This document shows positions 9,624 to 61,250 of a stretch of DNA of 64,000 nucleotides, in pieces. How positions within the stretch are numbered: the first letter of the stretch is position 1; each line of letters opens with the position of its first letter. The position numbers were made by a program, and so were the translations under genes. The DNA comes from a bacterium. Lineage in GTDB: Bacteria; Auribacterota; Tritonobacteria; UBA1439. The stretch lies in NCBI GenBank assembly GCA_028716845.1, contig JAQUPF010000004.1, forward strand, positions 128,730 to 192,729. The letters are read 5' to 3'. The notes beneath the pieces are model-generated. The model was given only the letters and a program-made list of their open reading frames with translations. It did no database searches and was not told where the DNA came from.

Positions 9624-11582
9624 TTGAACCACACCCATCGGCTCCGGCGCCTCGCCCTCCTCGCCGCGCTGGCCGCCCTGTGCTCCGGCTGCACGACGCT
9701 CGACCTGGTCAGGCCCCCCCCGCGGACCGACCTGTACCCGGCCTCGCCCGCCCCGGACGCCCCGCTCGTCCTCGCCATCCCCGGCCTCCGCGTCCCCGGT
9801 CTCCGCATCACGCAGGAGGAGCACTTCGGCCGCCTCGTCGAACTCCTCGCCGCGGAGGGGATCCCCTGCCGCATCCTCGCCTACGACACCGCCGATGACC
9901 CCGCGGCCCGGCATGCCGCCCTCTACTCGCCCGAGCAGGGCCTCGCCTGGACGCGCGTCGGCCCCGCCATGGCGCGGGAGTTCGAGTCGGAGAACGAGCG
10001 GCGCGCCGCGCGCGGCCACCCGCCTGTGAAGCGGCTGGTGCTCATCGGCTACAGCCAGGGCGGCGTCCTCCTCGCCCAGCTCGCCGGGCGCGTCTTCCAC
10101 ACCTTCAGGAACGAGTACCGGGAGACGGTGGAGGCGTTCGGCGCGGAGTGGGAGGCGCTCCGGAAGGACCCGGAGTTCCTGCTGTTCATCAACGCGCTGG
10201 ACGACTTCATCGTGCTGGAAAATATCCGGACGCAGTTCGAGGAGCTCTTCCGGAAAAGCCCCGCCCTCAGGCGGCTCCACGAGCGCGCCCGGAAGAAGCT
10301 CGCGACGCAGCACGACGAGTTCCTCGGCTACCTGACGGACCCGTCCCTCAAGTACCCGGGCATCCGGCGGTTCGAGCGGATCGGTACCCCCTACTACCCC
10401 AAGCGGTACGACAAGATCAGGGAGTACGCCGCCGCCCGCCACGAGCGCGCCGAGGAGGAGAAGGAGCGGAACCGGCAGTTCTTCATCACCTACGCGCAGT
10501 ACCGGCACCTGCTCGACGCCGAGGCCCGGTTCGTCACCTGCGCCGCGTCCCTGTTCGGCTCGCCGCAGGCGAACGACACCATGAACCTCCTGCGATGGCT
10601 GCCGTTCCTGCGGCGCTTCCTCGGGAGCGAATACTACCAGATCGAGCAGACGGAGCTCGGCACCGCCCAGCACCTGCAGCGAATCGAGGCCCTCGCGGCC
10701 GAGGCGCGCGAGCACCGTTTTCCGCTCAAGCCGGGCGCGGCGCTCTCCATCGTCGGCGCGAACGGCCCGCGTGGCGACGGCCTCGTGGACCAGCCCTCGG
10801 CGCACCTGAGCCTCCACACCTTCGCCGTCTACAGGCCGCGGGACGGGGAGGACGGGGAGCCGGTCCTCGAGCAGGCGGATGCCGTGACCCTGCCGCGGCT
10901 CCCGGTCGCGCCGCTCGCGGTCACGCATTTCCCCGAGAAGCGGCTCCGTGGCCTCGCGGGGACGCGGCACGGCGCCGCGTACATGGTCGGGGACAACCCC
11001 GCCTGGCCCTACATCCTGAACTTCATCAGGGACGACTGGGAGGCCATCCGGCGGGATCTCGCCCGCGACGCGGACCGGTTCCACCAGTTCATGGTCGAGG
11101 TCTCCTTCGAGGGCGGCGGGCTGAGGAACTCGGACCTCCGTTGGGAGGACGCCTCCGGAAACATCGAGGTTCGCGGCAGGTACTTCAACGCCGAGAGCGG
11201 GACCCTCGTCTGGACCGGATTCTTCAAGGAGGAGGGGATCGCCGCGGAACTCCGCGAGAAGGCCCGCCTCCTGAACGTGACCGACATGGTTCCCGGCGTC
11301 CGCGACGTCCTCGGCACGGAGCACGCCGAGCGGCCTCCGCTCCTCGGGAACCTGCGGCGGCGCGCCCGCATTCTGGATCCGCTCCCGCTCATCCCGAAGT
11401 CAGAAGCGCTCCTCGGCTGGACCGGCCTCTTCGAGGAGGAGATGGAAGAGGACGAGGGGCGGGTGCGCTTCACCGTGCGGCTGCCGGGCGGAAAGCGGGC
11501 CCCGATCGAGTGCGCCGTTCACTCCGGCCGCATCACCTTCATCAAGATAGACGTTGTATCCAACAATCACGGCGCCAGATAG
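9624..11582 (+). CDS. Lipoprotein, alpha/beta-hydrolase (lipase/esterase-like)
   Basis: A TTG start is followed by a signal peptide with lipobox LAALCSGC. The nucleophile elbow is GYSQGG (GxSxG). The last 11 codons and the stop lie inside palindromic element copy A. Confidence 0.6.
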   Translation: MNHTHRLRRLALLAALAALCSGCTTLDLVRPPPRTDLYPASPAPDAPLVLAIPGLRVPGLRITQEEHFGRLVELLAAEGIPCRILAYDTADDPAARHAALYSPEQGLAWTRVGPAMAREFESENERRAARGHPPVKRLVLIGYSQGGVLLAQLAGRVFHTFRNEYRETVEAFGAEWEALRKDPEFLLFINALDDFIVLENIRTQFEELFRKSPALRRLHERARKKLATQHDEFLGYLTDPSLKYPGIRRFERIGTPYYPKRYDKIREYAAARHERAEEEKERNRQFFITYAQYRHLLDAEARFVTCAASLFGSPQANDTMNLLRWLPFLRRFLGSEYYQIEQTELGTAQHLQRIEALAAEAREHRFPLKPGAALSIVGANGPRGDGLVDQPSAHLSLHTFAVYRPRDGEDGEPVLEQADAVTLPRLPVAPLAVTHFPEKRLRGLAGTRHGAAYMVGDNPAWPYILNFIRDDWEAIRRDLARDADRFHQFMVEVSFEGGGLRNSDLRWEDASGNIEVRGRYFNAESGTLVWTGFFKEEGIAAELREKARLLNVTDMVPGVRDVLGTEHAERPPLLGNLRRRARILDPLPLIPKSEALLGWTGLFEEEMEEDEGRVRFTVRLPGGKRAPIECAVHSGRITFIKIDVVSNNHGAR

Positions 11583-11600
11583 ATACGCGCTTATTCGACC
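11548..11600. repeat. Palindromic repeat element (PRE) copy A, left-arm half copy
   Basis: TAGACGTTGTATCCAAC...CAGATAGATACGCGCTTATTCG. It overlaps the 3' end of the lipoprotein gene. Confidence 0.7.
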
Positions 11601-11729
11601 TCACGCCTGCGCGGGCTTCACGGCTCCGTGCCGCCCCGCCTCGCGATCGGTTGCATGATCCGTTTATTTATACATCATTCTTATATAATTACGTTGCATT
11701 TATACAGTAGCAACGATAAGGTGTTGGGC

Positions 11730-12911: not shown

Positions 12912-12990
12912 GATGCGGATGTTGCATCCAACCCACACGGCGCCAGATAGATACGCGCATATTCGCCCCGCGACGACCCGGGGTGAATCA
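12912..12990. repeat. PRE copy B (left arm plus central hairpin)
   Basis: GATGTTGCATCCAAC...CAGATAGATACGCGCATATTCGCCCCGCG...CGGGGTGAAT starts 1 nt after the ATPase stop. Confidence 0.7.
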
Positions 12991-13055
12991 ACCTCGGTCG
13001 AGCTGCGGCATGGCGGGATGCATACCGGGTCTTCGCGCAGAGGGGGAAGATAAAG

Positions 13056-22879: not shown

Positions 22880-23215
22880 ATGAAGAAGACACTGTGCGCG
22901 ACGCTGGTCCTGCTGCTGCTCGCGGCATCGTCCGCCTTCGCCCGGCCGCGGCACCACCGGCACGGGTACCGGGGCCGCTACCGCCCCGGCTGCTCTGTCC
23001 CGGCGATCGTCGGCTCGGCCATCGGCGCCGGTCTCGGCGCGTACTGCGCGACCCGCTCATGGGACTCATGCGACCGTCCGTACGCCTACTCCCCCGCCCC
23101 CGTCTACTACTCTCCGCCGCCGCCGTACTACGCCCCGTACGCGTACGGCTATTACGTCTACCCGTCACCCTCGGTCTATGTTCGGGAATGCTACGTCCTC
23201 CCTCCCGGGTACTGA
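22880..23215 (+). CDS. Small secreted Tyr/Pro-rich protein
   Basis: The RBS GGGGAGGGA precedes signal peptide MKKTLCATLVLLLLAASSAFA. It has a glycine-zipper SAIGAGLGAY and a Y/P-rich C-terminus. Confidence 0.5.
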   Translation: MKKTLCATLVLLLLAASSAFARPRHHRHGYRGRYRPGCSVPAIVGSAIGAGLGAYCATRSWDSCDRPYAYSPAPVYYSPPPPYYAPYAYGYYVYPSPSVYVRECYVLPPGY

Positions 23216-23256
23216 AGACGTATTGCGGGACTGTTCGCGATTGATTGTGCTGCATG

Positions 23257-23332
23257 GATATTCGCCTCGCCGGCCCCGCGGGGCGAATAATGTTCCATCT
23301 CACTGGAAACAGGCTGGTTACATACATCGCCC
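23257..23332. repeat. PRE copy D (central hairpin plus right arm)
   Basis: ATTCGCCtcgccggccccgcGGGGCGAATAATGTTCCATCTCACTGG...GGTTACATACATCG. Confidence 0.6.
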
Positions 23333-23460
23333 GAAGCAGGGGCGCAGGCGGACGTATCCGACCGGAAGAATCAGATCCCTACAACGCCCTTATAACGTAT
23401 AATGTTGTCTGCACAGGACGCCAAGATCCGATTCGTATTGCTTGTGCAAAGGACGATTGC

Positions 23461-26479: not shown

Positions 26480-26560
26480 TGTTCCGGGGTATGCGGGGTC
26501 GGACCACGATAACTCTTTCCGGTGGAATGAGATAAGCATATTTTCGGCACGGGATGGGAC

Positions 26561-26635
26561 AGGGGCGTTCGCCCCGCAGGGGCGAATATGATTCCATCCT
26601 ATTGAAGCCGGGCGGATTCCATACAACGTCTACTC
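26561..26635. repeat. PRE copy E (central hairpin plus right arm)
   Basis: GTTCGCCCCgcaGGGGCGAATATGATTCCATCCTATTG...CCATACAACGTCTAC has a perfect 8-bp central inverted repeat. Confidence 0.75.
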
Positions 26636-26770: not shown

Positions 26771-28693
<1,923 letters not shown>

Positions 28694-28775
28694 ACACGTA
28701 TTCGCCCCCCGCGGGACCCGGAAAGGCGAATTAATCCACACCATCCCGCGCCCATGGCATACAATGTCGATATCC

Positions 28776-30327: not shown

Positions 30328-30407
30328 GATGATTGTAGCAGTATGCCGGGCCCTTTGCCATGCGGAGGCTGCATGGAACTGATTGCGATTGAAGGCGGCA
30401 CAAAGAC

Positions 30408-30485
30408 ATTCGCCCCGCGCGGCATGGGGGGCGAATAACCTTCCATCCTGTTGCAGACGTTGTGGTTACATACAACGTCTCCACT
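30408..30485. repeat. PRE copy F (central hairpin plus right arm)
   Basis: TTCGCCCCgcgcggcatgGGGGGCGAATAACCTTCCATCCTGTTGCAGACGTTGTGGTTACATACAACGTCTCC. Confidence 0.7.
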
Positions 30486-30665
30486 CGTGTATCATTGCCG
30501 CAGGACGGCGCCGCGGAGGGAGGCATGAGGGCATGAATCCGTGCACCTGCGCGCGGCGACCCTCGGCGGTGTCGATTCCGGAGAGGTCCGGCTGATGGGG
30601 AAACGGCTGTGAGAACGAACGGACTTCGCGCGGGACCGCCCGGTCCCGAAAACGATGCATCCAAA

Positions 30666-30740
30666 ATTGCCCCGCGGTTCCGGCAGGGAGAATTACCCTC
30701 CATCACTCTTGCCTGCAACGGGTTGCATAATACGTCTTTG
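30666..30740. repeat. PRE copy G (degenerate)
   Basis: ATTGCCCCGCGG...GAGAATTACCCTCCATCACTCTTGCC...GGTTGCATAATACGTCTT. Confidence 0.4.
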
Positions 30741-31679
30741 CCGGCAATCCTCGTCGCCGTGGTGACCGTCGCGGGGTGCGCGAGCCCCCCCGCGCTCCGC
30801 TGCGTCGACATGGACGCGCGAGGAGGCCGGCTCCTCCCCCTGGGGCTCAGCCCGGCGCGCGTGTACGGCATCGGCCTCTCCTACGCCGGCCACGCCGGGG
30901 AGACCGGCCTCCGGCGCCGCGCGCGCACGGGACCCCCGGTATTCGAGAAGGGCCCGTCCTCGCTCAATGCGATGGGCCGCCCGGTGCGGATGCCGTCGAG
31001 GGCCGAGCTCATCGACGCCCTCGAGCGGCTCGAGCCGGGTCTCGGGCGGAGGGCGGACAGGGAGTTCGCCGATCTCCCGGCGCTGCTCGATTACGAGGCC
31101 GAGCTCGCCTTCGTGCTGCTCGAGGACGTGGACTGGCGGCGGATCGACGAGCGGGCCTACGCCCCCCGGATGGGCTTCTTCATCGCGAACGACCTCTCCG
31201 CCCGCTCCGTCGCGGTACTGGGCGAGGGACGGCCCGACCGCGATGCATTCTGGGGCGCGTCGAAGAGCTTCCGCGGTTTCATGCCGGTCGGGCCGACCAT
31301 GTGGGTGCCGGATGCGTTGTCCCTCGACGCGGTCGTCTGCGTAATCCTCACCACCGAGGTGAACGGCGAGGTGAGACAGCGCGACTCGACCGGAAGGCTC
31401 CTCTACACGCCGCGGCGGATGCTGAAGGCCGTCGCCGCGCGCTTCCCCGACGACCTCCCGGCCGAGGGGGATGTCATACTCACCGGCACGCCGGCGGGGG
31501 TGGCCCTGCGGGTGCCGGCGTGGAAGACCGCCCTCGCTGATCTCCTCGGCATCGACCGGTTCGCCCGGCTGTCATCCGTCATCGGGATGGCGGAGCGGAG
31601 CGGCCGGTTCCTCGCCCCCGGCGACGAGGTGACCGTCTCGGGCGGTCCGCTCGGCTCGGTGACCACTGTCATCGAGTAG
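30738..31679 (+). CDS. Fumarylacetoacetate hydrolase (FAH) family protein
   Basis: The FAH fold carries DYEAELAFVL, GTPAGV and a metal-binding acidic cluster. The start is uncertain. A TTG at 30738 gives the hydrophobic N-terminus LPAILVAVVTVAGC (lipobox-like). The longer ORF from 30609 runs through PRE copy G, and an alternative ATG is at 30810. The stop TAG lies inside a short PRE left-arm remnant. Confidence 0.6.
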   Translation: MPAILVAVVTVAGCASPPALRCVDMDARGGRLLPLGLSPARVYGIGLSYAGHAGETGLRRRARTGPPVFEKGPSSLNAMGRPVRMPSRAELIDALERLEPGLGRRADREFADLPALLDYEAELAFVLLEDVDWRRIDERAYAPRMGFFIANDLSARSVAVLGEGRPDRDAFWGASKSFRGFMPVGPTMWVPDALSLDAVVCVILTTEVNGEVRQRDSTGRLLYTPRRMLKAVAARFPDDLPAEGDVILTGTPAGVALRVPAWKTALADLLGIDRFARLSSVIGMAERSGRFLAPGDEVTVSGGPLGSVTTVIE

Positions 31680-31898
31680 ACGTTGTACTGAACTGCTTGG
31701 GACCATGGATGTTGCAAACATATTCGGCGCGCGCGGCGCCGAGGGCATACACGTCGAAGACGCCGCGCCGCTGTCACCGATGAACGGCATCCGCCCGGCG
31801 GCCGGACCTGCTCCCGATTCCCATTTGCGCCCGCGCCATCGGCGGTGTATGGTGTATGCGCAGTTTGCCGTTCACGCACCGTACAAGGGAGGCGCGCC

Positions 31899-33471: not shown

Positions 33472-33712
33472 ACCCTGTACGAGGCATCTTGATCTTATTC
33501 GAATGGCGTACAGACGCGATTATGATTACGACGCATGTCTCGATCCGCGAGACTATCGCCCCGCAAGAACATAGAATTGATAGACGTTGAACGGAATTGA
33601 ATGGGTGCGAATGCGCTGCAAACCTGTTCGCCCCGCGCTGCACGCGGGGTAAATTTCATCCGATCACACTTATTTGCAGGAGGATATGTAATACGTCTTC
33701 TTATTGTAATTT
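33468..33712. repeat. PRE cluster H: left-arm remnant, then an inner motif, then central hairpin plus right arm
   Basis: TAGACCCTGTAC...CTTATTCGAATGG is followed by ...TAGACGTTGAAC... and then CTGTTCGCCCCGCGctgcaCGCGGGGTAAATTTCATCC...ATGTAATACGTCTTC. Confidence 0.5.
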
Positions 33713-34528: not shown

Positions 34529-34567
34529 TGGAGTAGAGGCTGGACGGCACCGGATTGGCTCGAACGC

Positions 34568-34615
34568 GTTGCAGACAAATTCGCCCCGCCTATTCTGCGG
34601 GGCGAATCTATTCCC
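34568..34615. repeat. PRE copy I (central hairpin only)
   Basis: GTTGCAGACAAATTCGCCCCGCctattctGCGGGGCGAATCTATTCC has a perfect 10-bp inverted repeat. It lies between convergent genes. Confidence 0.6.
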
Positions 34616-34654
34616 GGCGCGCCGATACGCCGGACAGCGGAGAGGCCGCCCGCG

Positions 34655-34861: not shown

Positions 34862-35072
34862 CGTCGCGATCTCCGGAACCCCTACTCCCCCACCCTCGTG
34901 CCTCGCGGAACAAGGTCACTCTATCGCTCCTGATCCGGCCGGGGCAAGCGAAATCCCGTCCGGTATGGCAGCGGAACGCCCCGCGTTTCCGCGGGGCGAA
35001 TATCCGCGCGCCATCTTCCGCCGGAGTATGCCGCGCCCAACGTCCGCGAGGGAACGCGGGCGGGTGCCCCGC

Positions 35073-37255: not shown

Positions 37256-37414
37256 AGCGCCCCTCCCGGGATCAACCGTGACGGCCGTCGCGGAGGGCCC
37301 CATCCACCGGCGCGGGGACGTCCGCCCGGAATTGTTTTCCGCGGCGCCGTCCGCCGGGCCGACATGGACGCGGACACCCGGCTGAACCGGTCGACGTCGC
37401 CGGTGATGTCCACG

Positions 37415-37490
37415 GATTCGCCCGGCAGGGGCCCGGGGCGAATAAGTTTCCATCCTATTGGCAGATAAGAAGTTGGATACAACGTCTACG
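37415..37490. repeat. PRE copy J (central hairpin plus right arm)
   Basis: GATTCGCCCGGcaggggCCCGGGGCGAATAAGTTTCCATCCTATTGGCAGATAAGAAGTTGGATACAACGTCTACG. Confidence 0.75.
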
Positions 37491-44377: not shown

Positions 44378-44413
44378 TGTCGTGCTATAATTCCCTATGA
44401 AAACATGGGTTTG

Positions 44414-46443: not shown

Positions 46444-46530
46444 TTATCTGATCACTTACTGGCTGATTTTTAAGTAACCGCGAGTAGCTGATTATGATGT
46501 GACCGGTGACATTAAGAGGAGATGACCAAT

Positions 46531-48269: not shown

Positions 48270-48397
48270 TTTGCACCTCGCCTATCCTTCTCTCATAGTG
48301 TCTGGTTATATCCCGTTCCTCCGTGGCTGGTTATGACCGGCCGATGACACTTTATCAGTGCCGACATCATCCCCGAAACATAATGCACCCTCCAAGG

Positions 48398-49219
48398 TTA
48401 TTCCACTGGCTCTTCAAGCCCTGTGTTTCTCTTCCAGCGTTCAATAGAAGCACGATTGATCGGAGCGGTAATCATATCTGTTATATCTTTTTCTACACGT
48501 GCAAATCCAGCCTTAGACAGACGCTCTCTTACTACCATCTCTTTGCCACGAGATAATCCCTTTTGATAATGACCTGCAAGGTAATGTGCAAGCCATAGCC
48601 CCCCCTGTGAATCTCCTGCTAATGAGCTATCACTCCAGATTATACACATGTCTGCGTTAGTGAATCGCAACCTCGATTTAAATAACTCAGCTTCATCGCG
48701 ATTCATTCTCCTCGCTGCTTGTAAAATACCATTGAGCTGCCCGCTCAACCTATGAACACTGTCTATGAATATTCTCCTCGTTGGTTTGGGCATTGTCTTT
48801 TGATCCAACACAATCGAGAGACCATCTACGAAATCCTTTGCTATGGCGGATACGGTTGCCTGAGCTATTGCCTGCCCCATGCAGAATTGCCATACCCAGT
48901 TCCTTAATCCTATTCCCTCTTCTGTTAGATAGTGTCTATTAGCCCCAGTAATCAACCTTGTGGCTCTTGCCATCGTATTCATTTTCGAAAGCTTACTTTG
49001 TATTTTATTGCCGTATCCTCTATCTGGATATATGTAAGAAATGTGCGGAAAAGCGTTAAGCTCCTTGATTTTCTTAACAAGCCAATCAACATGTCCATTC
49101 GGTTTATCTATCGTAGGGGGATCGCCTAAGATTGCTACAGTGGCAGCAACAAAAGGGGGGTCGCCATCATTCATCGGCATCGTGCCTGCTTCGTCACCAT
49201 AAATCCGAAGAATAGCCAT
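48398..49219 (-). CDS. DUF3800-family protein
   Basis: The N-terminus MAILRIYGDEAG matches the DUF3800 (y)IDESG start. It has low GC and is adjacent to the RelA/SpoT gene. Confidence 0.5.
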   Translation of the reverse strand: MAILRIYGDEAGTMPMNDGDPPFVAATVAILGDPPTIDKPNGHVDWLVKKIKELNAFPHISYIYPDRGYGNKIQSKLSKMNTMARATRLITGANRHYLTEEGIGLRNWVWQFCMGQAIAQATVSAIAKDFVDGLSIVLDQKTMPKPTRRIFIDSVHRLSGQLNGILQAARRMNRDEAELFKSRLRFTNADMCIIWSDSSLAGDSQGGLWLAHYLAGHYQKGLSRGKEMVVRERLSKAGFARVEKDITDMITAPINRASIERWKRNTGLEEPVE

Positions 49220-49467
49220 GTCTCAACCTGCCTTTCTACTGGTGACAATCGTGATGGCATTATTCCCATAATAGCACTGCTGGCAGCCCTGCATGATGTA
49301 TATGCCCTATTCATTGGATATTCTACCGGATCATGGTGGAGAGAATAAGCAAAGCATTTTAAAGCATTTTGCGTTTTGTCCATTCTCCAATTCAATTTCC
49401 CGCAGCCTGGTTGCAGCCAGGAACACCACCTTGTTTCCGTCAGGAATACTGGCAGCTTCGCATATGT

Positions 49468-52400
49468 TCACTGGGATATATTCAGGCCGAGTTGTTCACC
49501 CTCCTGTTCTTTCGCCTTCGGAGCCTCGCGCATTTCATCCGGGACGGGCGGCATTTCATCGGATCGGAAGCATTCGCCCTCAATGACAGCATTAAGGAGA
49601 TTAGCTTGCTCAGGATAGCATTCGACTGTTGCCTCCAGCACCCAGAGCAGTTCAAGGAGTTCGGTTGTAAACTGACTGGTCCATTTCTCAGGGCGGATAT
49701 CATCGAGGGGGGATGATTTCTTCCCGGCCCCTTTCTTCATGCGATATTTAAGCCATGATCGTACAACCTTGAGTCCCGAAACTTCATACTCGTAAACCTC
49801 GGGTGTGACAGGTAAGAACTTGCCATCGCCTACATGCAGCGTTCGGTTATTTTCTTCATAATGGAACGACTCAGGATAACCAGCAGAGCTGCCGGGGACA
49901 GCCTTCACGCACTTAGCCTTACCGGGTGGGATCTGCCCCAAGCGCTTGCCTTTAGGCACAAAGCGCTCACCGTAAGTATGCAACCACAGTAGTCGCGCCC
50001 CGATATCGGAAATCTTATCGAACAGCATGCCATCCTTTGTAATCGGCACTCTCAGCTCTCGCGTTTCTAGTTCCTTTTGAAATCGCGCGGTAAAGGCTGG
50101 CTGCGCCAAGACTCCATAAAGATAAGCTGCGAAATCCTCCGGCGCTACTTTCCGTATGTACACCTTGCCGAGCTGTTCGAGCAAGCCGGGGAGGATATTG
50201 GATTGCGTTGCGTTTCTTTTCCTGTACAGGGGTACAATATCTCTCCCTCCCCTTCCGGAAAAATAGTGACGATCGGGGATTTCAGCTGCTGATGTTAATG
50301 CTGGACCTTGCCCAAGTTCCAATGTCATCGAACTTGCAAGATAAAGCTGCTTTGGGCCATGAGTGCGCCAGAGATCGGGACGGAGGTAGTCTCCGATACG
50401 ATTGTCCGCAAACATCCATTGTCTATCGAACGAACGATATGCGTAGCGTTCAATCTGCGGCGGGGAGACATTACGTGGTAAATGATTAAGAGGACTGCCA
50501 TCTCCCTGCCGGAAATACAGAAGTGGGTACCTCAATGAAATCTTCCGATCTCGTGTCTCCTTAAAGGCATTAGCCCTATCGTCTGCGACAAGCAACGCTC
50601 GCCACCTTGATTTCAAGGTTTCTATCTCATGGCAAATTGGCCAAGTTCGTTTCATCTCGCAACCAGTATGTTGCCACGGCATAATATCAGTTAAAAGAGG
50701 CCAGTTGAAATAATGGCCCTTCCCCATAGGGCGAAATGGAGCATGCCAATCGTTAAGGCAGGCCTTCCACTCTACTTTGGAATAATCATCGATGGCTTCA
50801 AGCGCAGCAAGCTTGGTCTTGCTATCGCCCTCGATGCGGGAGTAATGGACTCGGGCGGGTTTGTCTTTATTCGCCTTCTTCGCGCGGACAGCGACGGCTA
50901 TGGCGACCGGGGTCTGAATGGCGAAAACGTTTTCGCTTTTTCGCGTACCGCGACCTTCTCCGCCAAGATCAAGAATCCATATCTCTTCACAAATTCGTCG
51001 CATATGTTCCCGCATCCCACAAAAGGCATCGCCATCCAGGTAACTTGATGCGCTGATAAAACTGACCACACCAGGGCATTGCGATTTCTCGTGTTCGAAG
51101 ACCTTCCAGAGCGCCCAGCGCCAGAAATAGACATAGAGATTATAGAGATTCTTGAGGTGGACGCCATGCCCGGCAGCTATGGCAGGATTAATGAAGTCGC
51201 GAAGAATAGAGCGTTTTTCTCTTTCTGATATCCTCGCCTTTGCGCTCGTGATTTTACGTATTTGACCCCTTTTGTCCCGCTTGCGGTCGTCGGGTAAAGG
51301 ATCTCCAAATCGAACCCAACCTCCATAGCGGGCCAGACTATCCTCTCGAGTAATATCCACGGCCTCGTGACGGTCGTAAGGAGGATTGCCCAAGCAGACA
51401 ATGACGGGAACGCTGTTCTTTACTTTGAGCGCCTTTGCGTGTTGCTCCGCGATGGGTCGCAGAAAGAAGGGCAATTGTGGAGGCTCGGCATGGGGGCTTT
51501 CAAGTGTGTCGGTCAGGAATATGTGGGTTCCGTCGGCGGGAAGTGATGCACCACGGTCACTCAGTGCACGGCTGACGCGCAACTCGGTCACAGCGTATGG
51601 ACCGACCATAATTTCGAATCCGAAGATGTTCTTTGCAAGCTCAGTTGCCTGTCCCTTGACGGCCCCTTTGCCCTGCTCAGACTTGACCCGCTCCAGGGCA
51701 TGTTCAATGACACCGAGCAGATAGGTGCCTGTCCCGGCGGCGGGGTCAAGCGTGATGACGCTGGGATCGGCAAAACCCAACGGCTTGTTGAGGCGGTTGA
51801 CAAGAAGATCGTCTATCAAGCGCACCTGGCAGTGAACGACTTCAATCGGTGTGTAGTATGCTCCAGCGTCCTTGCGTAGTTTGGGATCATAAACGGAGAG
51901 GAAATGTTCATAGAAATACAACCATGGGTCCTCAGGACCGATAAATGCGGCAGTGGGAACGGCGGCGATAACGCGGAGAAGTAGATCAAGAGAGGTTGTA
52001 ATTTCGGCGCGTGCGCGATTATCGGTCAGAACTTGGAGTGCACGGGCAAGGAGATTATGTTGCGCCGCGAGCGCCTTTTCAGCGCTGGCGAGTGTTAATG
52101 GTTCGGCTCCTTCACTACGCCCCAGGAGTAAGCCAAAGGTGACGGTTTGGGCATAGGCGTCAGCAAATTGCTCATCAGGCGCATCGGGAAATAGTAATTG
52201 CCGCCAGTCCCTGGCGAGTTCAACCAGCGGCGATGACGGGTCTTTGAGCGCATCTATCACATCATCGCGCAACATCCGGCAGAGTGGTGCGAGCAGAGCT
52301 GCGAACGCCTTGAGGTCGATCTTCCCCTTCCGATCTCTCGGGATGAGCGGTTGCCACAAGAAAAAGTCGCGCAGAAGGTGTTCAAGCGCAGCCGCATTTT

Positions 52401-52851
52401 GTGTGGAAACAGCCTTCTTGCCGTCCGCAGCCACATTGCCGGAGAGTCGCACAATCCTACCAGCAAGTTCACCATTGCGATAAAGCGCCCATTCATTGCC
52501 ATCGGTATAGAGAATATTGGGAATGGCCGAAAAGCGCTTGAATTGTTCGCGGTTATGTCCTTTGAATCGCGTTGCAAACGCGCCGACTCCGGGAGCTTTA
52601 AGTTCGACGTACCCGACGAGCAGCTTCTTGACGTGAACGGCGTAATCGGGACGGCCAAGTCGGTTAGGAAGGCGCGTTTCCCCGATACAAACAATATTCC
52701 ATCCAAGGGCTTTAGCTACGGCTGCCTTAAAGTTCTCGAAAGGGCCCCGCAACTGATCCTCGGGCTCACCGGTAGTGAGCTGTGTCATCTTGGCCTTCAC
52801 GTTGGTCGCGAAGGTTTCCAAGGATTCGCGTATCGAGATGATCTTGCTCAT
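49468..52851 (-). CDS. Type IIG restriction-modification enzyme (MmeI-like: PD-ExK nuclease plus gamma-class N6-adenine MTase plus TRD)
   Basis: The N-terminal PD...ELK is RPDYAVHVKKLLVGYVELKAPG. MTase motif I is LDPAAGTGTYL and motif IV is GNPPYD. There are no helicase motifs. It is 1127-1143 aa depending on start (M at 52899 or 52851). Confidence 0.75.
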   Translation of the reverse strand: MSKIISIRESLETFATNVKAKMTQLTTGEPEDQLRGPFENFKAAVAKALGWNIVCIGETRLPNRLGRPDYAVHVKKLLVGYVELKAPGVGAFATRFKGHNREQFKRFSAIPNILYTDGNEWALYRNGELAGRIVRLSGNVAADGKKAVSTQNAAALEHLLRDFFLWQPLIPRDRKGKIDLKAFAALLAPLCRMLRDDVIDALKDPSSPLVELARDWRQLLFPDAPDEQFADAYAQTVTFGLLLGRSEGAEPLTLASAEKALAAQHNLLARALQVLTDNRARAEITTSLDLLLRVIAAVPTAAFIGPEDPWLYFYEHFLSVYDPKLRKDAGAYYTPIEVVHCQVRLIDDLLVNRLNKPLGFADPSVITLDPAAGTGTYLLGVIEHALERVKSEQGKGAVKGQATELAKNIFGFEIMVGPYAVTELRVSRALSDRGASLPADGTHIFLTDTLESPHAEPPQLPFFLRPIAEQHAKALKVKNSVPVIVCLGNPPYDRHEAVDITREDSLARYGGWVRFGDPLPDDRKRDKRGQIRKITSAKARISEREKRSILRDFINPAIAAGHGVHLKNLYNLYVYFWRWALWKVFEHEKSQCPGVVSFISASSYLDGDAFCGMREHMRRICEEIWILDLGGEGRGTRKSENVFAIQTPVAIAVAVRAKKANKDKPARVHYSRIEGDSKTKLAALEAIDDYSKVEWKACLNDWHAPFRPMGKGHYFNWPLLTDIMPWQHTGCEMKRTWPICHEIETLKSRWRALLVADDRANAFKETRDRKISLRYPLLYFRQGDGSPLNHLPRNVSPPQIERYAYRSFDRQWMFADNRIGDYLRPDLWRTHGPKQLYLASSMTLELGQGPALTSAAEIPDRHYFSGRGGRDIVPLYRKRNATQSNILPGLLEQLGKVYIRKVAPEDFAAYLYGVLAQPAFTARFQKELETRELRVPITKDGMLFDKISDIGARLLWLHTYGERFVPKGKRLGQIPPGKAKCVKAVPGSSAGYPESFHYEENNRTLHVGDGKFLPVTPEVYEYEVSGLKVVRSWLKYRMKKGAGKKSSPLDDIRPEKWTSQFTTELLELLWVLEATVECYPEQANLLNAVIEGECFRSDEMPPVPDEMREAPKAKEQEGEQLGLNISQ

Positions 52852-52964
52852 GCCGATATTGCCTTTGGATCCTTTAGGCAATTCATATCCCGTTAACACA
52901 GAAGATTATCTGTAGAGTATAACAATGCTTCCGAAATCAGGTTCCCAGATTATCCATCGACTGA

Positions 52965-53660
52965 TTACCGTCTCATTGTATCAAGTGTAACCCAATCGCC
53001 AGGAGCCCGCTCGTATCGCCAGAATGTCCACCCGTTGCAGGTTCTTCGTTTACAGGCCGCCGCCGCAGCGAGTGAGGGAGATGTGTATACCTTCCCGTTC
53101 AAGAGAATCGTTCCATCGCGCCGAACCCGCGCCTGGATACGCTGCCCTTTGTGCTTTCCTCGAATTATGAATGGACCTGAATTATATTTCCTCAGTACAG
53201 CGTTCCGCCCCCCCGGGGCTTCTATGAGCTCCTCCCGCTTTTGCGCAACACACGTCTCGCCGAACAGCCCATCAATCCGCTCTTGAAAATCCCGTTTGAT
53301 TTGCTGGCGGAACTTCCGTTGTAAGTTTTCAGAACGGGCGAACTTCCCTTTCTGCTTGTTCCCGGGGGGCTGCACCACGCGCAGGATCAATGATTCGAGT
53401 TCCCTCAGATTGTCACTGCCGATGGTCAGATAGACGGAGAACCGATCCCAGGAGTCCCTGTGCTTGTCCCGGAGATGATGTCTTAACCGGCTGCGAAGGT
53501 TTGTTGCAAGCCCCACATAATAGAGCTTCCCACGCCGATACAACGCGTATACCCCCTGCCGGCGCCGGACATAGTGTCGGATGATATTCAGGTGCTTTTC
53601 CAATGCCTCGCGCGAGATATTCTCAAGATGCTGACACACTAGCTGAGAGTGCTTGGCCAT
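52965..53660 (-). CDS. GIY-YIG nuclease domain protein with a C-terminal DUF4357-like region
   Basis: The GIY-YIG motif is GVYALYRRGKLYYVGLATNLRSRLRHH. The C-terminus has a conserved GWTFW. The start MAKHSQL follows a GGGGGAG RBS. Confidence 0.6.
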   Translation of the reverse strand: MAKHSQLVCQHLENISREALEKHLNIIRHYVRRRQGVYALYRRGKLYYVGLATNLRSRLRHHLRDKHRDSWDRFSVYLTIGSDNLRELESLILRVVQPPGNKQKGKFARSENLQRKFRQQIKRDFQERIDGLFGETCVAQKREELIEAPGGRNAVLRKYNSGPFIIRGKHKGQRIQARVRRDGTILLNGKVYTSPSLAAAAACKRRTCNGWTFWRYERAPGDWVTLDTMRR

Positions 53661-53798
53661 TATCTCCCCCCCGCCTTCAATGCTATCCAACTCTATGATG
53701 GCTATGGATGGAGTAGTTCCCCTGTGGATTTCTCGCCATAACTTGTCCTGTGAATGTGTGCAAGTCAACCGGTCTGTGCTGCTTGCCAGCAATCTCTT

Positions 53799-55808
53799 TC
53801 AGTCAACAGCCGGACCCGCCTCCGGTGACCCCTCTCCCCCATTCTCCTCGGGAGGCATTGGGGGGGAGGCAGCCACTGTATGTGCCGCGGCAGGGAGGTG
53901 AGCCCGGGCGGCCTCAGCCGCTTCCGATTTAAGTCGCTCAGCCTTGCGACGATACTTTCTCGCCGGAGGGTAATTCGGTTTGAGTTCAAGTGCTTTATCA
54001 TAGTCGGCAATAGCCCGATCGTACTCCCCCATATCCTTGTATACATTGCCCCGATGATAATAGTAATACGCGCTATTCGGCCGCAGTGCGATGGCTTCCG
54101 TATAATCAGCGATCGCATGGGGGCTATCACCCTTTCCGTGATATGCCCTGGCCCGGTCCACATAAGCTTGAAGAAAAGTGGGATCCAGTTCGATCGCCCT
54201 GTTGAAGTCCGCGATGGCACTATCATTATCAAGCTGGTTAAGGTGCCAAGAGCCGCGACAGCGAAGCGCTTTCACGTGATTCGGATCAAGTTCAATCGCC
54301 TTGTCGAAGTCCGCAATTGCGCGTGCGCGCTCGCCAATGCGAAGGAGAACGTTGCCACGATTGTAATGAGCATCCGCATATTGTGGGTCTAATGCTATCG
54401 CCATGCTGTAATCGGCAAGAGCCTTCTCATGTTCCCGTTGTTGCACGTGACAGTATCCCCGATTCAGGAAAGAGAGCATATGGTTTGGTCGCAGTTCAAT
54501 CGCCCTGCTGTAATCCGCAATCGCCTTGTCGAAGTCCTCTCTCAGGCGGTGCGCATTGCCCCGGTTGTAATGTGCGGGGTGGCTTCTCGGATCAAGCTCG
54601 ATCGCCTTTGTGTAATCGGCGATTGCCTTGTCCCATTCACGGGCATGGCGGTGCGCAACGCCCCTGCTGTTATACGCCGGGGAGCAATGCGGATCCAGTT
54701 CGATCGCCTCATTCGCGAATGCGAGGGCCCGCGTGTGATCGCCTTTCGCGTTATAGACAAGCGCCATTCCGTTGTATGGATAGGCATAGCGGGGGAAAAG
54801 CTCGATTGCCTTTTCATAGTCCGCAAGGGCAAGATCGTATTCACCTTGCTCTTTATAGAGATTGCCTCGATTATTATAGGCATATGCGTACTTGGGGTTG
54901 AGTTCGATCGCTCGGTTATAATCGGCGAGCGCTTTGTCATACTCCCCCTTGTCCAAGTACGCATTCCCGCGATTGTTGTACACAATGGTATAATCCGCAT
55001 CCAGGTTTATCGCCGCGGTATAATCATCGATCGCCCGATCATTATCCCCCTTCCCCCTGTATGCGCAGCCGCGATCCTTGTATGCCGATGCTCGGGAGGG
55101 ATCAAGCTCTATCAATGAACCATAATCATCGATGGCCTTGTCATACTCGCGCATATCCAAATACACGCCGGCACGGGCACGATAGGGAGTTCTATCCCCG
55201 GGCCTCAGTTCAATCGCCCTGCTGAAATCATCAACCGCACACGAGAAATTGCGCATATTCCTGTATGCCCTGCCTCGACTGATGTAAGCTCTTGGATAAT
55301 CCGGCCTCAAGCCGATGACCGTGCTGTAATCCGCAATTTCCGATTCATAATCCTTTATCCTGCGATATGAAGCGGCACGACTCATGTACGCGCCGATGAA
55401 ATCAGGCTTCAGTGTGATTGAGCGAGAATAATCGTTGATCGCAGATTGATAATATTTCCCGGTCTGAAACAGATTGCCACGAATGGAGTATAGACCAGGT
55501 TCGGCCGGGTTCAGATTGATCGCGGTGTTGAGATCCGCGAGTGCGCGGTCGTAATCACCCTCGGCCATATAAATGAACGCACGAACGCAATATAACCGGG
55601 CATCCTTCGGCTCAAGGGCAATCGCCTTATTGCACATGTCTATCGCACCGGCATGATCACCGTTTAAATGGCAGGCGAAGCTCTGTTTCATGCAGGCTTC
55701 GATCGCGGAGGAATCGCGCCGCGGAATACGGCAGGATGTCACCAGAAGCAGAAGCATCAGGATGGGAAGAACGAGGAGCCACCTTCTGCTACATCCCATT
55801 GCATTCAT
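53799..55808 (-). CDS. TPR-repeat lipoprotein
   Basis: The signal and lipobox LLLLLVTSC are followed by more than 15 tandem 34-aa TPR units (AxxYxxRGxxYxxxGxYDxAIxDY). Confidence 0.8.
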   Translation of the reverse strand: MNAMGCSRRWLLVLPILMLLLLVTSCRIPRRDSSAIEACMKQSFACHLNGDHAGAIDMCNKAIALEPKDARLYCVRAFIYMAEGDYDRALADLNTAINLNPAEPGLYSIRGNLFQTGKYYQSAINDYSRSITLKPDFIGAYMSRAASYRRIKDYESEIADYSTVIGLRPDYPRAYISRGRAYRNMRNFSCAVDDFSRAIELRPGDRTPYRARAGVYLDMREYDKAIDDYGSLIELDPSRASAYKDRGCAYRGKGDNDRAIDDYTAAINLDADYTIVYNNRGNAYLDKGEYDKALADYNRAIELNPKYAYAYNNRGNLYKEQGEYDLALADYEKAIELFPRYAYPYNGMALVYNAKGDHTRALAFANEAIELDPHCSPAYNSRGVAHRHAREWDKAIADYTKAIELDPRSHPAHYNRGNAHRLREDFDKAIADYSRAIELRPNHMLSFLNRGYCHVQQREHEKALADYSMAIALDPQYADAHYNRGNVLLRIGERARAIADFDKAIELDPNHVKALRCRGSWHLNQLDNDSAIADFNRAIELDPTFLQAYVDRARAYHGKGDSPHAIADYTEAIALRPNSAYYYYHRGNVYKDMGEYDRAIADYDKALELKPNYPPARKYRRKAERLKSEAAEAARAHLPAAAHTVAASPPMPPEENGGEGSPEAGPAVD

Positions 55809-55823
55809 TGAATGGATGGAACC

Positions 55824-55948
55824 CGTAGACGTTGTATATATCGCGCTCGGGTCGAACAGGATAGAAACTTATTCGCCCCCGGGGGCTCTGGGGGCGAATA
55901 AGTCCGCATCATCCTGCGGCCGGGGCAGTTGCATAACACGTCTTCTAC
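55824..55948. repeat. PRE copy K, complete about 125-bp palindromic element (type copy)
   Basis: GTAGACGTTGTATATATCGCGCTCGGGTCGAACAGGATAGAAACTTATTCGCCCCCgggggctctGGGGGCGAATAAGTCCGCATCATCCTGCGGCCGGGGCAGTTGCATAACACGTCTTCTAC. The stop codon of the downstream minus-strand gene is the terminal CTA. Confidence 0.85.
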
Positions 55949-57264
55949 CGGGCCGGCGGCTCCTCCAGCCGCACCAGCAGCCGTTGCTGGGTTTGGCCGT
56001 CCGCGAAGTGGAGCAGGACGGGCACGGTGTCCCCGGTGAGATTGCCCACTCCGCATTCCATGACCGGCCGGGTCGTGCCGGACACCGTCCACGCCGCGCG
56101 CTGCGACGCCTTGTCGGCCATGCCCTCGATGGTCCGCGTGTCACCGGTGGACGCGTCGTGGATCATGCCGCCGATGATGCCCTCCCTGCTGATGTCGAGT
56201 TGCAGGAACTGCGACGGCTCGGGGCCGGACGGCTGGCCGTCCTGCGTCAGGGCGAACACGCCAAGCGGCATCCACTCGACCGTGTCGGGGGCGACCTCCG
56301 GAGCGCTGCCGGCGATCTGTTCCGCCTGCTCCGCGTACTCATCCGCCGACGCGATGACCTGATCACCGTAATAGACCGAATTGTCCTGGTAGTAGACGTT
56401 CTCGCCGTACGAGTAGTACACGGGCTCCCGCCACCCGTAGCCGACCCAGCCGACCATCATGGGCCACGTGGCCCAACCGTAGGGATGCGTGACGCGCCAG
56501 GAGGCCCAGTTGGGGTGATCCGACCAGAAGTCGAGCCGGGGATAGTTGTCCCTGACCTGATCGCGGATTTCGTCGCGCCGCTCGACGCGATCGCCCTGCA
56601 GCTTCTGGCGGTTCTCGATCCGGTCCGGTCGCCTGGCGGAGATGTCGCCGCGCCGGTCCGGGCGGCTCTCGATGCGATCGGCGCGGGCTTCAGCCGGCCG
56701 GGGACGGCCCTCGATCCTCCCCGCGGCGGGACGGCCCTCTGCGCCGCGCCCCTGGAGGAACTCGGCCGCGGCGCCGCCGGCCGCAGGGCCCCACGTCCGG
56801 TCCCCGGTCCTCGAACCGGCTGACGGCCTCGGCATGTCCAGGAAATGCTGCAGATCGGCGCTCGAGGGCCGGGCCCCGGCGCCGGGCCGGGCCCCCGCGC
56901 CCGGGAAGGCGCCTCCACCGGGATGGGTGCCCGCGCCCGGGAAGGCGCCTCCACCGGGACGGGTGCCCGCGCCCGGGAAGGCGCCTCCGCCGGGACGGGT
57001 GCCGTGTGACGGAGCGCGGCTGATCGAGGGTGAACGGCCCACCGACGCGCTCGGGCGGCTCCCTCCGCCGCCATGCATGCTTCTCCCTCCCCCGTACGAT
57101 CCGCCTCCGACGCGGCCGCCGCCGCCGCGCGCTCCTCCGCCGCCGCGCCCCCCTCCGCCGCGTCCCCCGCCGCCGCGTCCCCCGCCGCCGCGGGCCGGCA
57201 CGTCACCGACCGTCAACAGGAGGACCGCCGCCACGACCATGCCGACGCGAACAACCCTGTTCAT
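55945..57264 (-). CDS. Secreted glycine-rich low-complexity protein with internal tandem repeats
   Basis: The signal peptide is MNRVVRVGMVVAAVLLLTVG. It has (GGGGR)x6 and (TRPGGGAFPGAG)x3 repeats and a globular W/Y-rich C-terminus. Confidence 0.6.
   Translation of the reverse strand: MNRVVRVGMVVAAVLLLTVGDVPARGGGGRGGGGRGGGGRGGGGARGGGGRVGGGSYGGGRSMHGGGGSRPSASVGRSPSISRAPSHGTRPGGGAFPGAGTRPGGGAFPGAGTHPGGGAFPGAGARPGAGARPSSADLQHFLDMPRPSAGSRTGDRTWGPAAGGAAAEFLQGRGAEGRPAAGRIEGRPRPAEARADRIESRPDRRGDISARRPDRIENRQKLQGDRVERRDEIRDQVRDNYPRLDFWSDHPNWASWRVTHPYGWATWPMMVGWVGYGWREPVYYSYGENVYYQDNSVYYGDQVIASADEYAEQAEQIAGSAPEVAPDTVEWMPLGVFALTQDGQPSGPEPSQFLQLDISREGIIGGMIHDASTGDTRTIEGMADKASQRAAWTVSGTTRPVMECGVGNLTGDTVPVLLHFADGQTQQRLLVRLEEPPAR
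56898..57005. repeat. 36-bp tandem repeat x3 (coding) inside the Gly-rich gene
   Basis: GCCCGGGAAGGCGCCTCCACCGGGA(T/C)GGGTGCCCGC is repeated three times. A 15-bp GGGGR-coding repeat array follows at about 57098-57190. Confidence 0.7.
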
Positions 57265-58249: not shown

Positions 58250-58378
58250 TGATCAAAGACGTATTATATAACCAACACGGCACCAATGAGATAGGAACTA
58301 TTTCCCCCTCAACATCCAACGGCCGGATTGATCCGCATCATGCCGCGGCCGGAGCAGTTGCATAACAAGTCTTCTAGA
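58250..58378. repeat. PRE copy L (full length, degenerate centre)
   Basis: AAGACGTATTATATA...GGATTGATCCGCATCATGCCGCGGCCGGAGCAGTTGCATAACAAGTCTTCTAG has a right arm about 90% identical to copy K. It overlaps the stop of the ABC permease gene. Confidence 0.7.
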
Positions 58379-59189
58379 TATATCTCCTGTGGAGGAAGAT
58401 GAGCGTCGAGACCACATAGCAGAACGCGGCGAAGAGCAGCGCATAGCCGAGAATTCCGGCAAGGGAGACCCAATCCATCGCCAGGACCCGGTAGCTCAGG
58501 TGCACGCCCTTCACCTTGTCGGCGAGGGGGGAATAGGTGGGGAGAAGGACATAGCAGGCGGCGAGGAGCTGCTGGACCATCCGGAGCATGAAGAGGCGCA
58601 CCTGATCCGTCGTCCCGTCCATCGCCCCCATGGTGACGATCATGAGCCAGTAGAGAAGCCTCTCATGAATCACCATGATGATCAGGACCGCCACGGCCGG
58701 GTGCAGGAAGGTCGCGAGCAGGACAGCCCAAGACAACGCCACGGTGCTTGAGGCGATCCCCTCGATGGCGACGAAGATGATTCCCGTCTGGAAAGGAATC
58801 GTCCAGACCAGGGAGAGGATCGTCGCCAGCACGAGCCCCAGCAGATGCATGGAGGAACAGGCGAGGACGGTGGATAGAAACACCGAGAGCATCCACCCTT
58901 CCGGTCGACACGGCTTCGTCAGCACCATCTTGATGCAGCGGGTGCTGACGTGGTAGTAGAACGTGAGGACCGCGAGGGCCACCCCCATCACGAAGGCGAA
59001 CCTTCCTATCTCCTGCTGGATCCGCCGGATCAGATCGAACCGGGTCATCGAACTCCGGGTCGCGACGGAGGGAATGAGCATCACGGCAAGGATGATGCCG
59101 ACAAACAGGCCGACCGCCCGGATGAGCCGGTTTCTCCGGAAGAAGACAATCTGCACTCTGATCTGCTCACGAAGGTGCCCGGTCATCAC
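58374..59189 (-). CDS. ABC-2-type transporter permease (membrane protein)
   Basis: It has 6 predicted TM helices and sits in an operon with an ABC ATPase and a TlpA-like redoxin. Confidence 0.55.
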   Translation of the reverse strand: MMTGHLREQIRVQIVFFRRNRLIRAVGLFVGIILAVMLIPSVATRSSMTRFDLIRRIQQEIGRFAFVMGVALAVLTFYYHVSTRCIKMVLTKPCRPEGWMLSVFLSTVLACSSMHLLGLVLATILSLVWTIPFQTGIIFVAIEGIASSTVALSWAVLLATFLHPAVAVLIIMVIHERLLYWLMIVTMGAMDGTTDQVRLFMLRMVQQLLAACYVLLPTYSPLADKVKGVHLSYRVLAMDWVSLAGILGYALLFAAFCYVVSTLIFLHRRYI

Positions 59190-61123: not shown

Positions 61124-61250
61124 CGGAGACGCATTACATAACGGCCATGGCGTCGGAGGGATAGGTACTCATGCACCCGGTGGGGCCCACGGTGCGAATG
61201 GATTGGAAACATGCACCGCCGCTGGAGCTTACATAGATACGTCTTCGCCT
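61124..61250. repeat. PRE copy M (full length, degenerate)
   Basis: GAGACGCATTACATAA...GGATAGGTACTC...CACGGTGCGAATGGATTGG...GCTTACATAGATACGTCTTC. Confidence 0.5.

Follow-up and report, generated by a model that had tools for sequence, protein, structure and literature searches.

Introduction

The Correia, ERIC and RUP elements of Neisseria, Enterobacteriaceae and Streptococcus pneumoniae, respectively, have been summarised as MITEs (miniature transposable elements with inverted repeats), defined as small (<~200-400 bp), multicopy and without a transposase gene (PMC3184786), and the REP, BIME and REPIN repeats, which are mobilised by RAYT (TnpA-REP), include the GTAG-led SMAG repeats of Stenotrophomonas (PMC3116915, PMC3184786). 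Here we describe a family of imperfectly palindromic repeats of about 125 bp in a stretch of 64,000 nt from the genome of an uncultured bacterium related to Candidatus (Ca.) Auribacterota (assembly GCA_028716845.1, contig JAQUPF010000004.1, positions 128,730 to 192,729; this whole stretch is called the window hereafter). Its copies are designated by letters, the best-preserved full element being K (55824..55948). The best-supported reading is that the family is an undescribed one of a known kind, strongly expanded in this genome, and it is probably a lineage-specific, non-coding and non-autonomous mobile or selfish palindromic DNA repeat of the MITE or REP kind.

A likeness to REP/BIME, Correia and RUP-type elements had been proposed in a preliminary description of this DNA, and is borne out by a MITE/REP-like anatomy. 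With the Correia, ERIC and RUP MITEs the family shares a size of 100-160 bp, a lack of coding capacity, terminal inverted repeats, and many copies in spacers and gene 3' ends, some of them fused to reading frames to which they give stops; in both, the best copy forms a long hairpin and presence varies among related genomes. The size, terminal inverted repeats, copy number, location and filled and empty sites of the family are those of a MITE, but no target duplication was seen. Unlike these elements, however, it has no sequence similarity to them (K was unmatched by blastn in distant mode in 5,426 complete Escherichia coli genomes, which carry ERIC and REP), it has no TA or other target-site duplication and no parent insertion sequence (IS) with matching ends that could be found, its best-kept part is a G+C-rich central palindrome, which is atypical for them, and it is a mosaic with at least two arm types.

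The REP, BIME and REPIN repeats resemble the family in their G+C-rich palindrome, in units that occur singly or as inverted pairs forming a longer hairpin, in the lack of target-site duplication, in their density between genes and in termini that in several copies read GTAG(AC). The unit described here is, however, ~80 nt long rather than the 20-40 nt of REP, its arms are not palindromic, paired units have one common hairpin instead of one each, GTAG is found at only 4/19 termini, and no Y1/RAYT gene was detected in the 68 kb examined. The elements therefore do not fall within the definition of a REP unit as a palindrome of 20-40 nt, often GTAG-led.

Two further systems invite comparison. Rickettsia palindromic elements (RPE) are palindromic repeats of ~100-150 bp, typically inserted in frame inside genes. 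As with RPE, the repeats of the window enter reading frames and add peptide segments, but only extreme 3' ends are hit, the sequences are unrelated and the host belongs to another lineage. Integron attC sites (e.g. the ~125-bp VCRs) possess RYYYAAC...GTTRRRY cores, a conserved fold with variable sequence, a uniform orientation and an integrase nearby, and they too are imperfect palindromes of similar length placed after single genes each 1-2 kb, as seen at 23-38 kb of the window. In the present family, by contrast, the polarity of the end motifs is reversed (GTTGTAT...ATACAAC), sequence rather than fold is conserved, orientations are mixed, the intervening housekeeping genes (typA, catalase, glgX) have their own promoters, and no integrase was found in the open reading frames (ORFs) scanned. 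We accordingly rejected an integron cassette array, since the polarity of the motifs, the mixed orientations, the housekeeping genes and the lack of an integrase among those ORFs all speak against one.

Results

A single family of diverged palindromic repeats

Motifs of the repeat were strongly over-represented in the window: TTATTCGCCCC (<=1 mismatch) and GTAGACGTTGTAT (<=2 mismatches) occurred 11 and 7 times, against 1.7 and 0.44 expected from shuffles, and the paired hairpin halves TTCGCCCC-N3-20-GGGGCGAA occurred four times against 0.01 expected. When re-oriented, half and full copies aligned to one ~80-nt unit, and an nhmmer profile built on this unit identified 17 strong arms, as well as weaker second arms facing most of the copies previously taken as halves; most 'half' copies, then, carry a second, degenerate arm. 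Leave-one-out validation, in which the tested unit and its partner arm were both removed, recovered all units with E from 6e-18 to 4e-3. This brings the number of loci with profile support to 14 (A, B, C, D, E, F, G, x (31676), H, I, J, K, L and M), which span 68-127 bp, with a full repeat of roughly 110-127 bp, and 12 of these were brought by full-length alignment into a single ~125-nt consensus. Profile, leave-one-out validation and alignment thus agree on one family of ~125-bp imperfect palindromes, and the alignment of 12 loci, with 14 supported by the profile, answers the doubt raised earlier as to whether the copies would share one consensus. The repeat loci have no ORF of their own, and their overlap with genes is limited to neighbouring gene ends.

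The preliminary description had counted at least 15 copies in 64 kb. While the family itself is real, the profile count is 14 loci plus a weak hairpin-only relic. Two of the listed copies, at 24944-24996 (N) and 9523-9575, find no support from the profile, and neither does the first part (33468-33578) of a copy given as H at 33468-33712, which proved to comprise a single element at 33579-33703 preceded by a duplicated FAA-hydrolase fragment. Conversely, a short copy placed at 31676-31697 was confirmed as an element (x) and reaches ~31756.

That the repeats represent an assembly artefact or chance similarity can be practically dismissed, nothing having been seen in its favour. Motif counts far exceed those of shuffles, leave-one-out E-values are as low as 6e-18, copies are diverged (inter-copy identity 60-90%) and each lies in a unique context. 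Furthermore, across 13,899 bp that include A and B, the window is matched without a difference by a Logan assembly made independently from SRR22315506, and related copies are present in other samples. Collapsed repeats at contig joins, which had been named as a potential pitfall, are ruled out by the divergence of the copies, their unique contexts and this matching assembly.

Anatomy and conservation of the element

The ~80-nt unit consists of W-AGACGT-NN-TAY-NN-AAC, ~16 variable nt, GAT(G/A)G and ATTCGCCCC-loop-GGGGCGAAT, the hairpin part having the extended form (T)TATTCGCCCC-loop-GGGGCGAAT(AA); only its last ~30 nt are palindromic. A full element (K, L, M and H) comprises two such units placed head to head with one common central hairpin, i.e. 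two ~55-nt inverted arms flanking a G+C-rich central palindrome. Terminal inverted repeats of ~16-17 nt, which it had been proposed to look for, are present, with W-AGACGT-NN-TAY-NN-AAC at either end in K, L, M, H and a copy from a related genome (L073, described below). GT precedes AGAC, forming a GTAG terminus, in 4/19 termini.

Conservation is concentrated in nearly fixed blocks (AGACGT, TAY, AAC, GAT and ATTCGCCCC/GGCGAAT), between which the sequence varies freely. The variance of column conservation was 0.043 compared with 0.012 under a uniform rate (3.5x), a value reached in 0/10,000 simulations, and the same blocks are retained in three of the clade's genomes. The distal terminal blocks and the central palindrome are likely recognition features. 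Two arm types could be distinguished, a common type with ..GATGGAAAC beside the hairpin and a second type with a ..GCTGCAAAC-like sequence, found on the left side of D, F, G, H, I and x. With at least two arm types, the family is a mosaic. Copies range in their state of decay from full elements to one-armed and hairpin-only relics.

Conservation of a short central palindrome rather than a long hairpin

A 125-nt long-hairpin RNA (terminator, stabiliser or small RNA) had been put forward as an alternative to a mobile DNA element. Folded as RNA, K reached -59.6 kcal/mol (z -6.3), and was the sole window copy with a convincing long hairpin among the eight folded; the other seven gave z from -2.2 to +0.7, and copies from relatives z -4.1 (L073) and -2.6 (L080). 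Across the 12 aligned loci, positions paired in the K structure could pair in 59.1% of cells, compared with 57.8% in column-preserving shuffles (87/500 of which reach the observed value), with a covariation score of 0.152 against 0.141; paired cells amounted to 45% in the middle helix and 65.5% in the terminal helix. Complementarity between left and right arms was no greater within the same element than between different elements (0.545 vs 0.561), and in the RNAalifold consensus nothing was kept beyond the central 10 pairs, its covariation term of +0.44 amounting to a penalty. Since only K folds in this manner, covariation is lacking and the consensus is central only, a conserved 125-nt RNA or DNA hairpin is not supported, whereas a conserved short central palindrome is. 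The long-hairpin RNA alternative is not upheld, given that pairing equals the shuffle control and RNAalifold grants no covariation bonus.

The central hairpin (8-11 bp) folds in most copies, and its 8 core pairs are intact in 9-11/12. Its stem sequence barely varies within the window, such that the window copies are uninformative on selection for pairing. One clear case of the palindrome being kept through change comes from the L073 copy, whose hairpin carries a compensatory double change (TTATTCGtCCC/GGGaCGAATAA).

Distribution among genes and contribution to gene ends

The elements were described as AT-richer than a host of roughly 68% GC, and as lying in spacers and at gene 3' ends. Both statements hold, the measured values being 56.2% GC for the elements, 66.8% for native DNA and 62.6% for the whole window. 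Copies occupy spacers between transcription units and extreme gene 3' ends, and are never found inside the glgX/treY/treZ or aroA/aroE clusters. The genes of the window are ordinary chromosomal ones, including aroA, aroE, a glgX/alpha-amylase cluster, a radical-SAM enzyme and typA, along with genes for an acyltransferase, an FAA hydrolase, an MBL-rhodanese protein, a catalase and a thioredoxin-like protein.

Elements make up 3.1% of native DNA, at about one per 3.5 kb. This density, first put at one per 4-5 kb or so, is local: copies are absent from a 15.8-kb stretch that begins 4.25 kb upstream of the window and runs up to position 11.5 kb, from 13-23 kb, and from a low-GC island at 40.4-55.8 kb (15.4 kb). 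Such densities are within the range reported for the Correia, ERIC and REP families. The earlier view that it is far higher than expected for IS-derived MITEs is not supported.

Stop codons of seven flanking genes lie within an element or <=6 nt from one. The FAA-hydrolase gene, gene 55945-57264(-) and gene 58374-59189(-) end on the TAG of GTAGAC or CTAGAAGAC, an internal AGATAG gives the stop to gene 9624-11582 and to typA, and the stop of an ATPase gene is 6 nt before GGATGT, the terminal hexamer of B. Aligned with its closest relative (85% identity), the window TypA (MDD5556538.1) is homologous up to residue 627, and homology ends <=2 nt from the first base of copy C (28653..28768), which encodes the last 13 residues and the TAG stop (28691-28693).

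In no copy is the hairpin followed by a T-run (AATAAG.. follows), and none was called in a terminator scan. With a hairpin present and the U-tract absent, the elements do not qualify as intrinsic (Rho-independent) terminators. Identity with a canonical terminator or promoter was likewise rejected, as T-runs are absent and a strong promoter-like site by E lies outside the element.

Filled and empty sites among relatives

The nearest relatives of the window TypA belong to metagenome-assembled genomes (MAGs) labelled Candidatus Aureabacteria, now Ca. Auribacterota, of the Planctomycetes-Verrucomicrobia-Chlamydiae (PVC) group. In L001/L002 (TypA 85%), L076 (81%) and L074/L075 (74%), the typA 3' end is without an element and keeps a native 7-residue tail. 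In L073 (ENA ERZ926243; TypA 82%), on the other hand, an intact 110-bp copy is present, whose TAG is the typA stop. As L073 typA keeps six native tail codons, its junction is ~15 nt downstream of that in the window. Because the two junctions differ and equally close relatives are empty, the sequences would most simply be explained by independent insertions.

A further copy was identified in L080 (ENA ERZ27239157; 7679-7797), where the ortholog of the protein encoded at 9624-11582 is 70% identical. Three syntenic JGI contigs (L081-L083; 9790-9905) carry the copy of this site with altered ends and terminal motifs lost: centre and flanks are 82-92% identical to L080, compared with 38-57% for the termini and right arm, and 16/21 of the right-arm changes are from A/T in L080 to G/C in L081. 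This patchiness suggests either erosion of the recognition blocks or replacement of a patch from another copy, and both explanations are ones of DNA-level repeat dynamics. Since the L081-83 copy is without motifs, intact motifs are dispensable at that site.

Searches for related sequences

Over the 64 kb, Rfam gave no hits at the gathering score, and at E<=1 no element was matched save for a meaningless IRES_Bip overlapping L (E 0.24). Plasmid and phage collections likewise contained no match to the element. The earlier impression that the consensus matches no recognised family is therefore supported by Rfam and by the E. coli, plasmid and phage collections. In the literature, core motifs appeared only as chance primer matches, and a paper on Auribacterota MAGs makes no mention of repeats.

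A scan with the pattern GACGTNNTAYNNAWYN{12,24}GATRGN{4,10}TTCNCCC, which is strict and misses the true L073 and L080 copies, yielded 18 matches among GTDB species representatives, 51 in JGI metagenomes and one in IMG/VR, all of them single, in unrelated taxa and attributable to chance. None of the GTDB and JGI loci reached E<1e-3 with the unit profile, a result that, as the pattern misses true copies, bounds the window-type variant only. The only transposase of the window belongs to the IS1595 family (40782-41690), and has no similarity to the element. An origin of the repeats as MITEs of this resident IS was rejected, the DNA around its transposase gene being without similarity to the repeat.

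Individual copies and their surroundings

Support for K comes from motif counts, profile, leave-one-out validation and fold. Its left terminus, GTAGACGTTGTAT, is at 55825-55837, its central hairpin (55867-55903) is formed by TTATTCGCCCC (55869-55879) and GGGGCGAATAA (55891-55901), and its right terminus, ACACGTCTTCTAC, is at 55936-55948, where CTA (55945-55947) is the stop (TAG) of gene 55945-57264(-). The motifs of its outer inverted arms are present as first described, except that the right end of K reads GCATAACACGTCTTCTAC, the exact ATACAACGTCTAC being found in E and J. L (58254..58378; profile, leave-one-out validation, fold z -1.5) is a full-length copy whose central hairpin has decayed; between its right arm and that of K identity is 88-91%, and its right terminus holds the stop of gene 58374-59189(-) (CTA 58374-58376). 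M (61124..61250; fold z +0.7), full length and strongly diverged, is 25 nt downstream of gene 61275-63983(-). H (33579..33703) is also full length, with a left arm of the second type (..GCTGCAAAC by the hairpin) and a right arm of the common type.

Among the less complete copies, A (11547..11614, +; profile, leave-one-out validation) is good in its left arm, whereas its centre has decayed. As GGTTGCATGATCCGTTTAT resembles a right terminus, A may reach ~11668, and it is probably a full but decayed element; from it gene 9624-11582 takes its last 11 codons and its TAG stop (11580-11582). B (12914..13036), with a good left arm, a hairpin containing a G-U pair and a degenerate right arm, lies just behind the AAA_14/DUF4143 ATPase gene (ATG 11730 to 12911), beginning 3 nt past its stop. 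D (23213..23333) combines a good right arm with a second-type left arm, and the stop TGA (23213-23215) of ORF 22799-23215 adjoins its AGACGT. F (30361..30485) matches D at 69% identity over 103 nt; its left arm is of the second type, and its right arm and hairpin come close to the consensus. F shares its spacer with G (30635..30740), 150 nt away, which has a good right arm and a degenerate hairpin. In x (31676..31756, +), which has a second-type arm and a decayed hairpin, the FAA-hydrolase gene takes its stop from the TAG of GTAGAC (31677-31679). I (34533..34618) retains a perfect 11-bp central hairpin between weak arms, while E (26556..26634, -) and J (37405..37490, -) each consist of a single arm, near-consensus in J, and a hairpin. 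A possible hairpin-only relic, AACGCCCCGCG-TTTC-CGCGGGGCGAAT (34970..35005; 9.8 bits, weak support), is downstream of the catalase gene.

Several features were observed next to copies. The terminus of E adjoins a near-consensus sigma-70 promoter (TTGACC-16-TATAAT, 11/12 matches) at 26636-26663, 2 nt past the element and upstream of typA, and a TTGACA is found 10 nt after the terminus of J. A and B have the most similar left arms of any pair (86% identity over 51 nt), in direct orientation, and bracket the ATPase gene, which has a third-position GC below that of its neighbours and an AT-rich upstream region. It could be an acquired gene bounded by repeats; the idea that A and B are 53 bp duplicated when a gene was inserted between them was rejected, A probably being a full element and the ATPase gene having an AT-rich upstream region of its own. 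The FAA-hydrolase gene has its 3' part duplicated, with an internal deletion, downstream of the MBL-rhodanese gene (33303-33480, +, compared with 30889-31688); this partial duplicate is followed by the first ~13-20 nt of an element (GTAGACCCTGTAC), and is not itself a copy. Homology between the duplicates ends 13-20 nt into the element terminus, which therefore places a rearrangement breakpoint inside the repeat.

K is exactly at the right edge of a foreign island of low GC content (about 50%; 40400-55823) with a set of defence and mobility genes. These encode the IS1595-family transposase mentioned above, an N6/N4 DNA methylase (41712-42647), a RelA/SpoT-like protein (47217-48269), a Type ISP restriction-modification enzyme (49468-52899), a GIY-YIG/RAMA protein (52965-53792) and a 669-aa TPR protein (53799-55808, -). 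We also identified a second, unrelated repeat (38780-38921 vs 46127-46266, and 40464-40518 vs 46058-46110; 76% and 84% identity), whose pieces adjoin at 46 kb and, in the other copy near the left edge of the island, flank an ABC-2 permease gene (39012-40316, -) in swapped order.

Other features of the window

A 93-nt imperfect palindrome with repeated CACGGAT/ATCCGTG heptamers, unrelated to the family, is found in the ddl-aroA spacer (176-268). Large tandem DNA repeats in the window are protein-internal and also unrelated to the element: a 156-nt period in an unannotated 567-aa ORF (4783-6486, +), a 102-nt TPR period (53799-55808, -), and Gly/Pro-rich repeats of 15-18 nt (56450-57200, -) in ORF 55945-57264. 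The gene at 8698-9444(-) encodes a nuclease of the ERCC4 (XPF) type (Pfam E 1.4e-25) that has helix-hairpin-helix motifs in tandem, an architecture best known from archaea and eukaryotes. No tRNA was found in the window.

Discussion

We favour a mobile or selfish DNA repeat as the probable nature of the family because it is one family with block conservation and no structural covariation, because it is AT-richer in composition and absent from recently acquired DNA, and because native gene ends have been replaced, filled and empty sites occur, and the copies form a decay series. Under such a scenario, an enzyme acting in trans and encoded elsewhere in the genome would recognise the terminal blocks, and probably the central palindrome too, and would copy or move the element into AT-richer spacers, where inserted copies would decay under GC-biased mutation and occasionally recombine with each other. 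By-products for the host would include new stop codons, short C-terminal tails, substrates for rearrangement and, close behind many genes, a stable hairpin that may have an effect on mRNA 3' ends.

A number of observations weigh against this interpretation. Copies are old, their arms being ~60-70% identical, with no sign of recent movement in this genome. The filled and empty typA sites were compared among distant relatives (74-85% protein identity) rather than strains. No target-site duplication, one of the signatures proposed at the outset, flanks K, L, M or H under three boundary definitions, although a duplication of 2-3 bp could have decayed in old copies. A cognate transposase, likewise sought on the basis of the preliminary description, was not detected: no transposase with matching ends occurs in the 68 kb examined, where the unrelated IS1595-family gene is the only one, and neither Y1/RAYT nor another candidate enzyme was found among ~50 window ORFs scanned against Pfam. 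Between 9.6 and 37.5 kb, nearly all co-directional spacers >70 bp contain a copy, as would fit a punctuation or terminator role, and a host function could just as well explain why the blocks are conserved in three genomes.

The main rival is consequently a cis-acting punctuation of the host, in which the central G+C hairpin serves as a U-tract-independent terminator or as a stabiliser of mRNA 3' ends. The central hairpin is indeed the only structure kept in nearly all copies, L073 provides one compensatory double change, copies lie between transcription units and never within glgX/treY/treZ or aroA/aroE, and many start at a stop codon or a few nt away. We nevertheless consider punctuation a possible but doubtful explanation. 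The hairpins are without a T-run and none appeared in the terminator scan, the stem sequence itself is conserved, which points to common descent and not convergent function, and the hairpins of L, M, G, x and A have decayed with no visible replacement. Moreover, termination leaves the conserved distal termini (AGACGT..TAY..AAC), ~50 nt from the hairpin, unexplained, and the orthologous L081-83 copy is without motifs. Punctuation is compatible with a mobile origin, and an effect of the hairpin on mRNA 3' ends is plausible as a secondary role. Binding sites of a sequence-specific DNA-binding protein (nucleoid-associated or a global regulator), reading AGACGT/TAY/AAC/GATGG and the central palindrome, would account for short spaced blocks with freely varying spacers, for their persistence in three genomes of the clade, and for the ends of E and J 2-10 nt before a -35-like TTGAC(C/A). 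This appears improbable, as recognition sites of a transposase predict the same pattern, while the elements disrupt gene ends, differ in presence between relatives, are found in all states of decay, and are inconsistent in position and orientation relative to promoters.

A structured non-coding RNA family, either a 125-nt long hairpin or a ~80-nt small RNA ending in the central hairpin, is unlikely, and we give it very little credence. The fold of K, the z of -4.1 for the L073 copy and the stable hairpin in which the ~80-nt unit terminates speak for it, but the folds of seven other copies do not surpass those of shuffles, pairing in the middle helix is limited to 45% of cells with covariation equal to shuffles, RNAalifold assigns a penalty, Rfam offers no match, and units occur in either orientation to flanking genes, some of them overlapping coding sequence. 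Structured RNA was thus rejected following folds, pair counts on the K structure, RNAalifold and arm complementarity, with only the central hairpin surviving. A different possibility concerns the mobile reading itself. Judging from the termini, the lack of a visible target duplication together with frequent G(T/A)AGAC ends may leave room for a non-DDE mechanism. Rather than an IS-derived MITE, the element would then be moved or maintained by a different kind of enzyme that makes no target duplication (a single-strand Y1/HUH-type enzyme, or a recombinase reading the palindrome and distal blocks) and that targets gene ends, which we regard as rather unlikely. If true, this would represent a REP/RAYT-like partnership of host and element with a fourfold larger bipartite substrate in a little-known lineage of the PVC group, and, in its strongest form, the host would have recruited the element as a standard punctuation between transcription units.

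For a mobile or selfish repeat of the MITE or REP kind, the density, mosaic arms and well-kept central palindrome are of mild interest and would not surprise a specialist, and the biological gain is modest unless the mobilising enzyme proves unusual. In practical terms, the repeats account for odd C-terminal tails and mis-called short ORFs in annotation, and in assembly and binning they represent a lineage marker as well as a source of contig breaks and rearrangements. These findings give Candidatus Auribacterota and its relatives in the PVC group, a lineage that has hardly been studied, a repeat family not described before. In the native DNA surveyed here the repeats occupy about 3%, and housekeeping genes, typA among them, have had their 3' ends rewritten by these elements.

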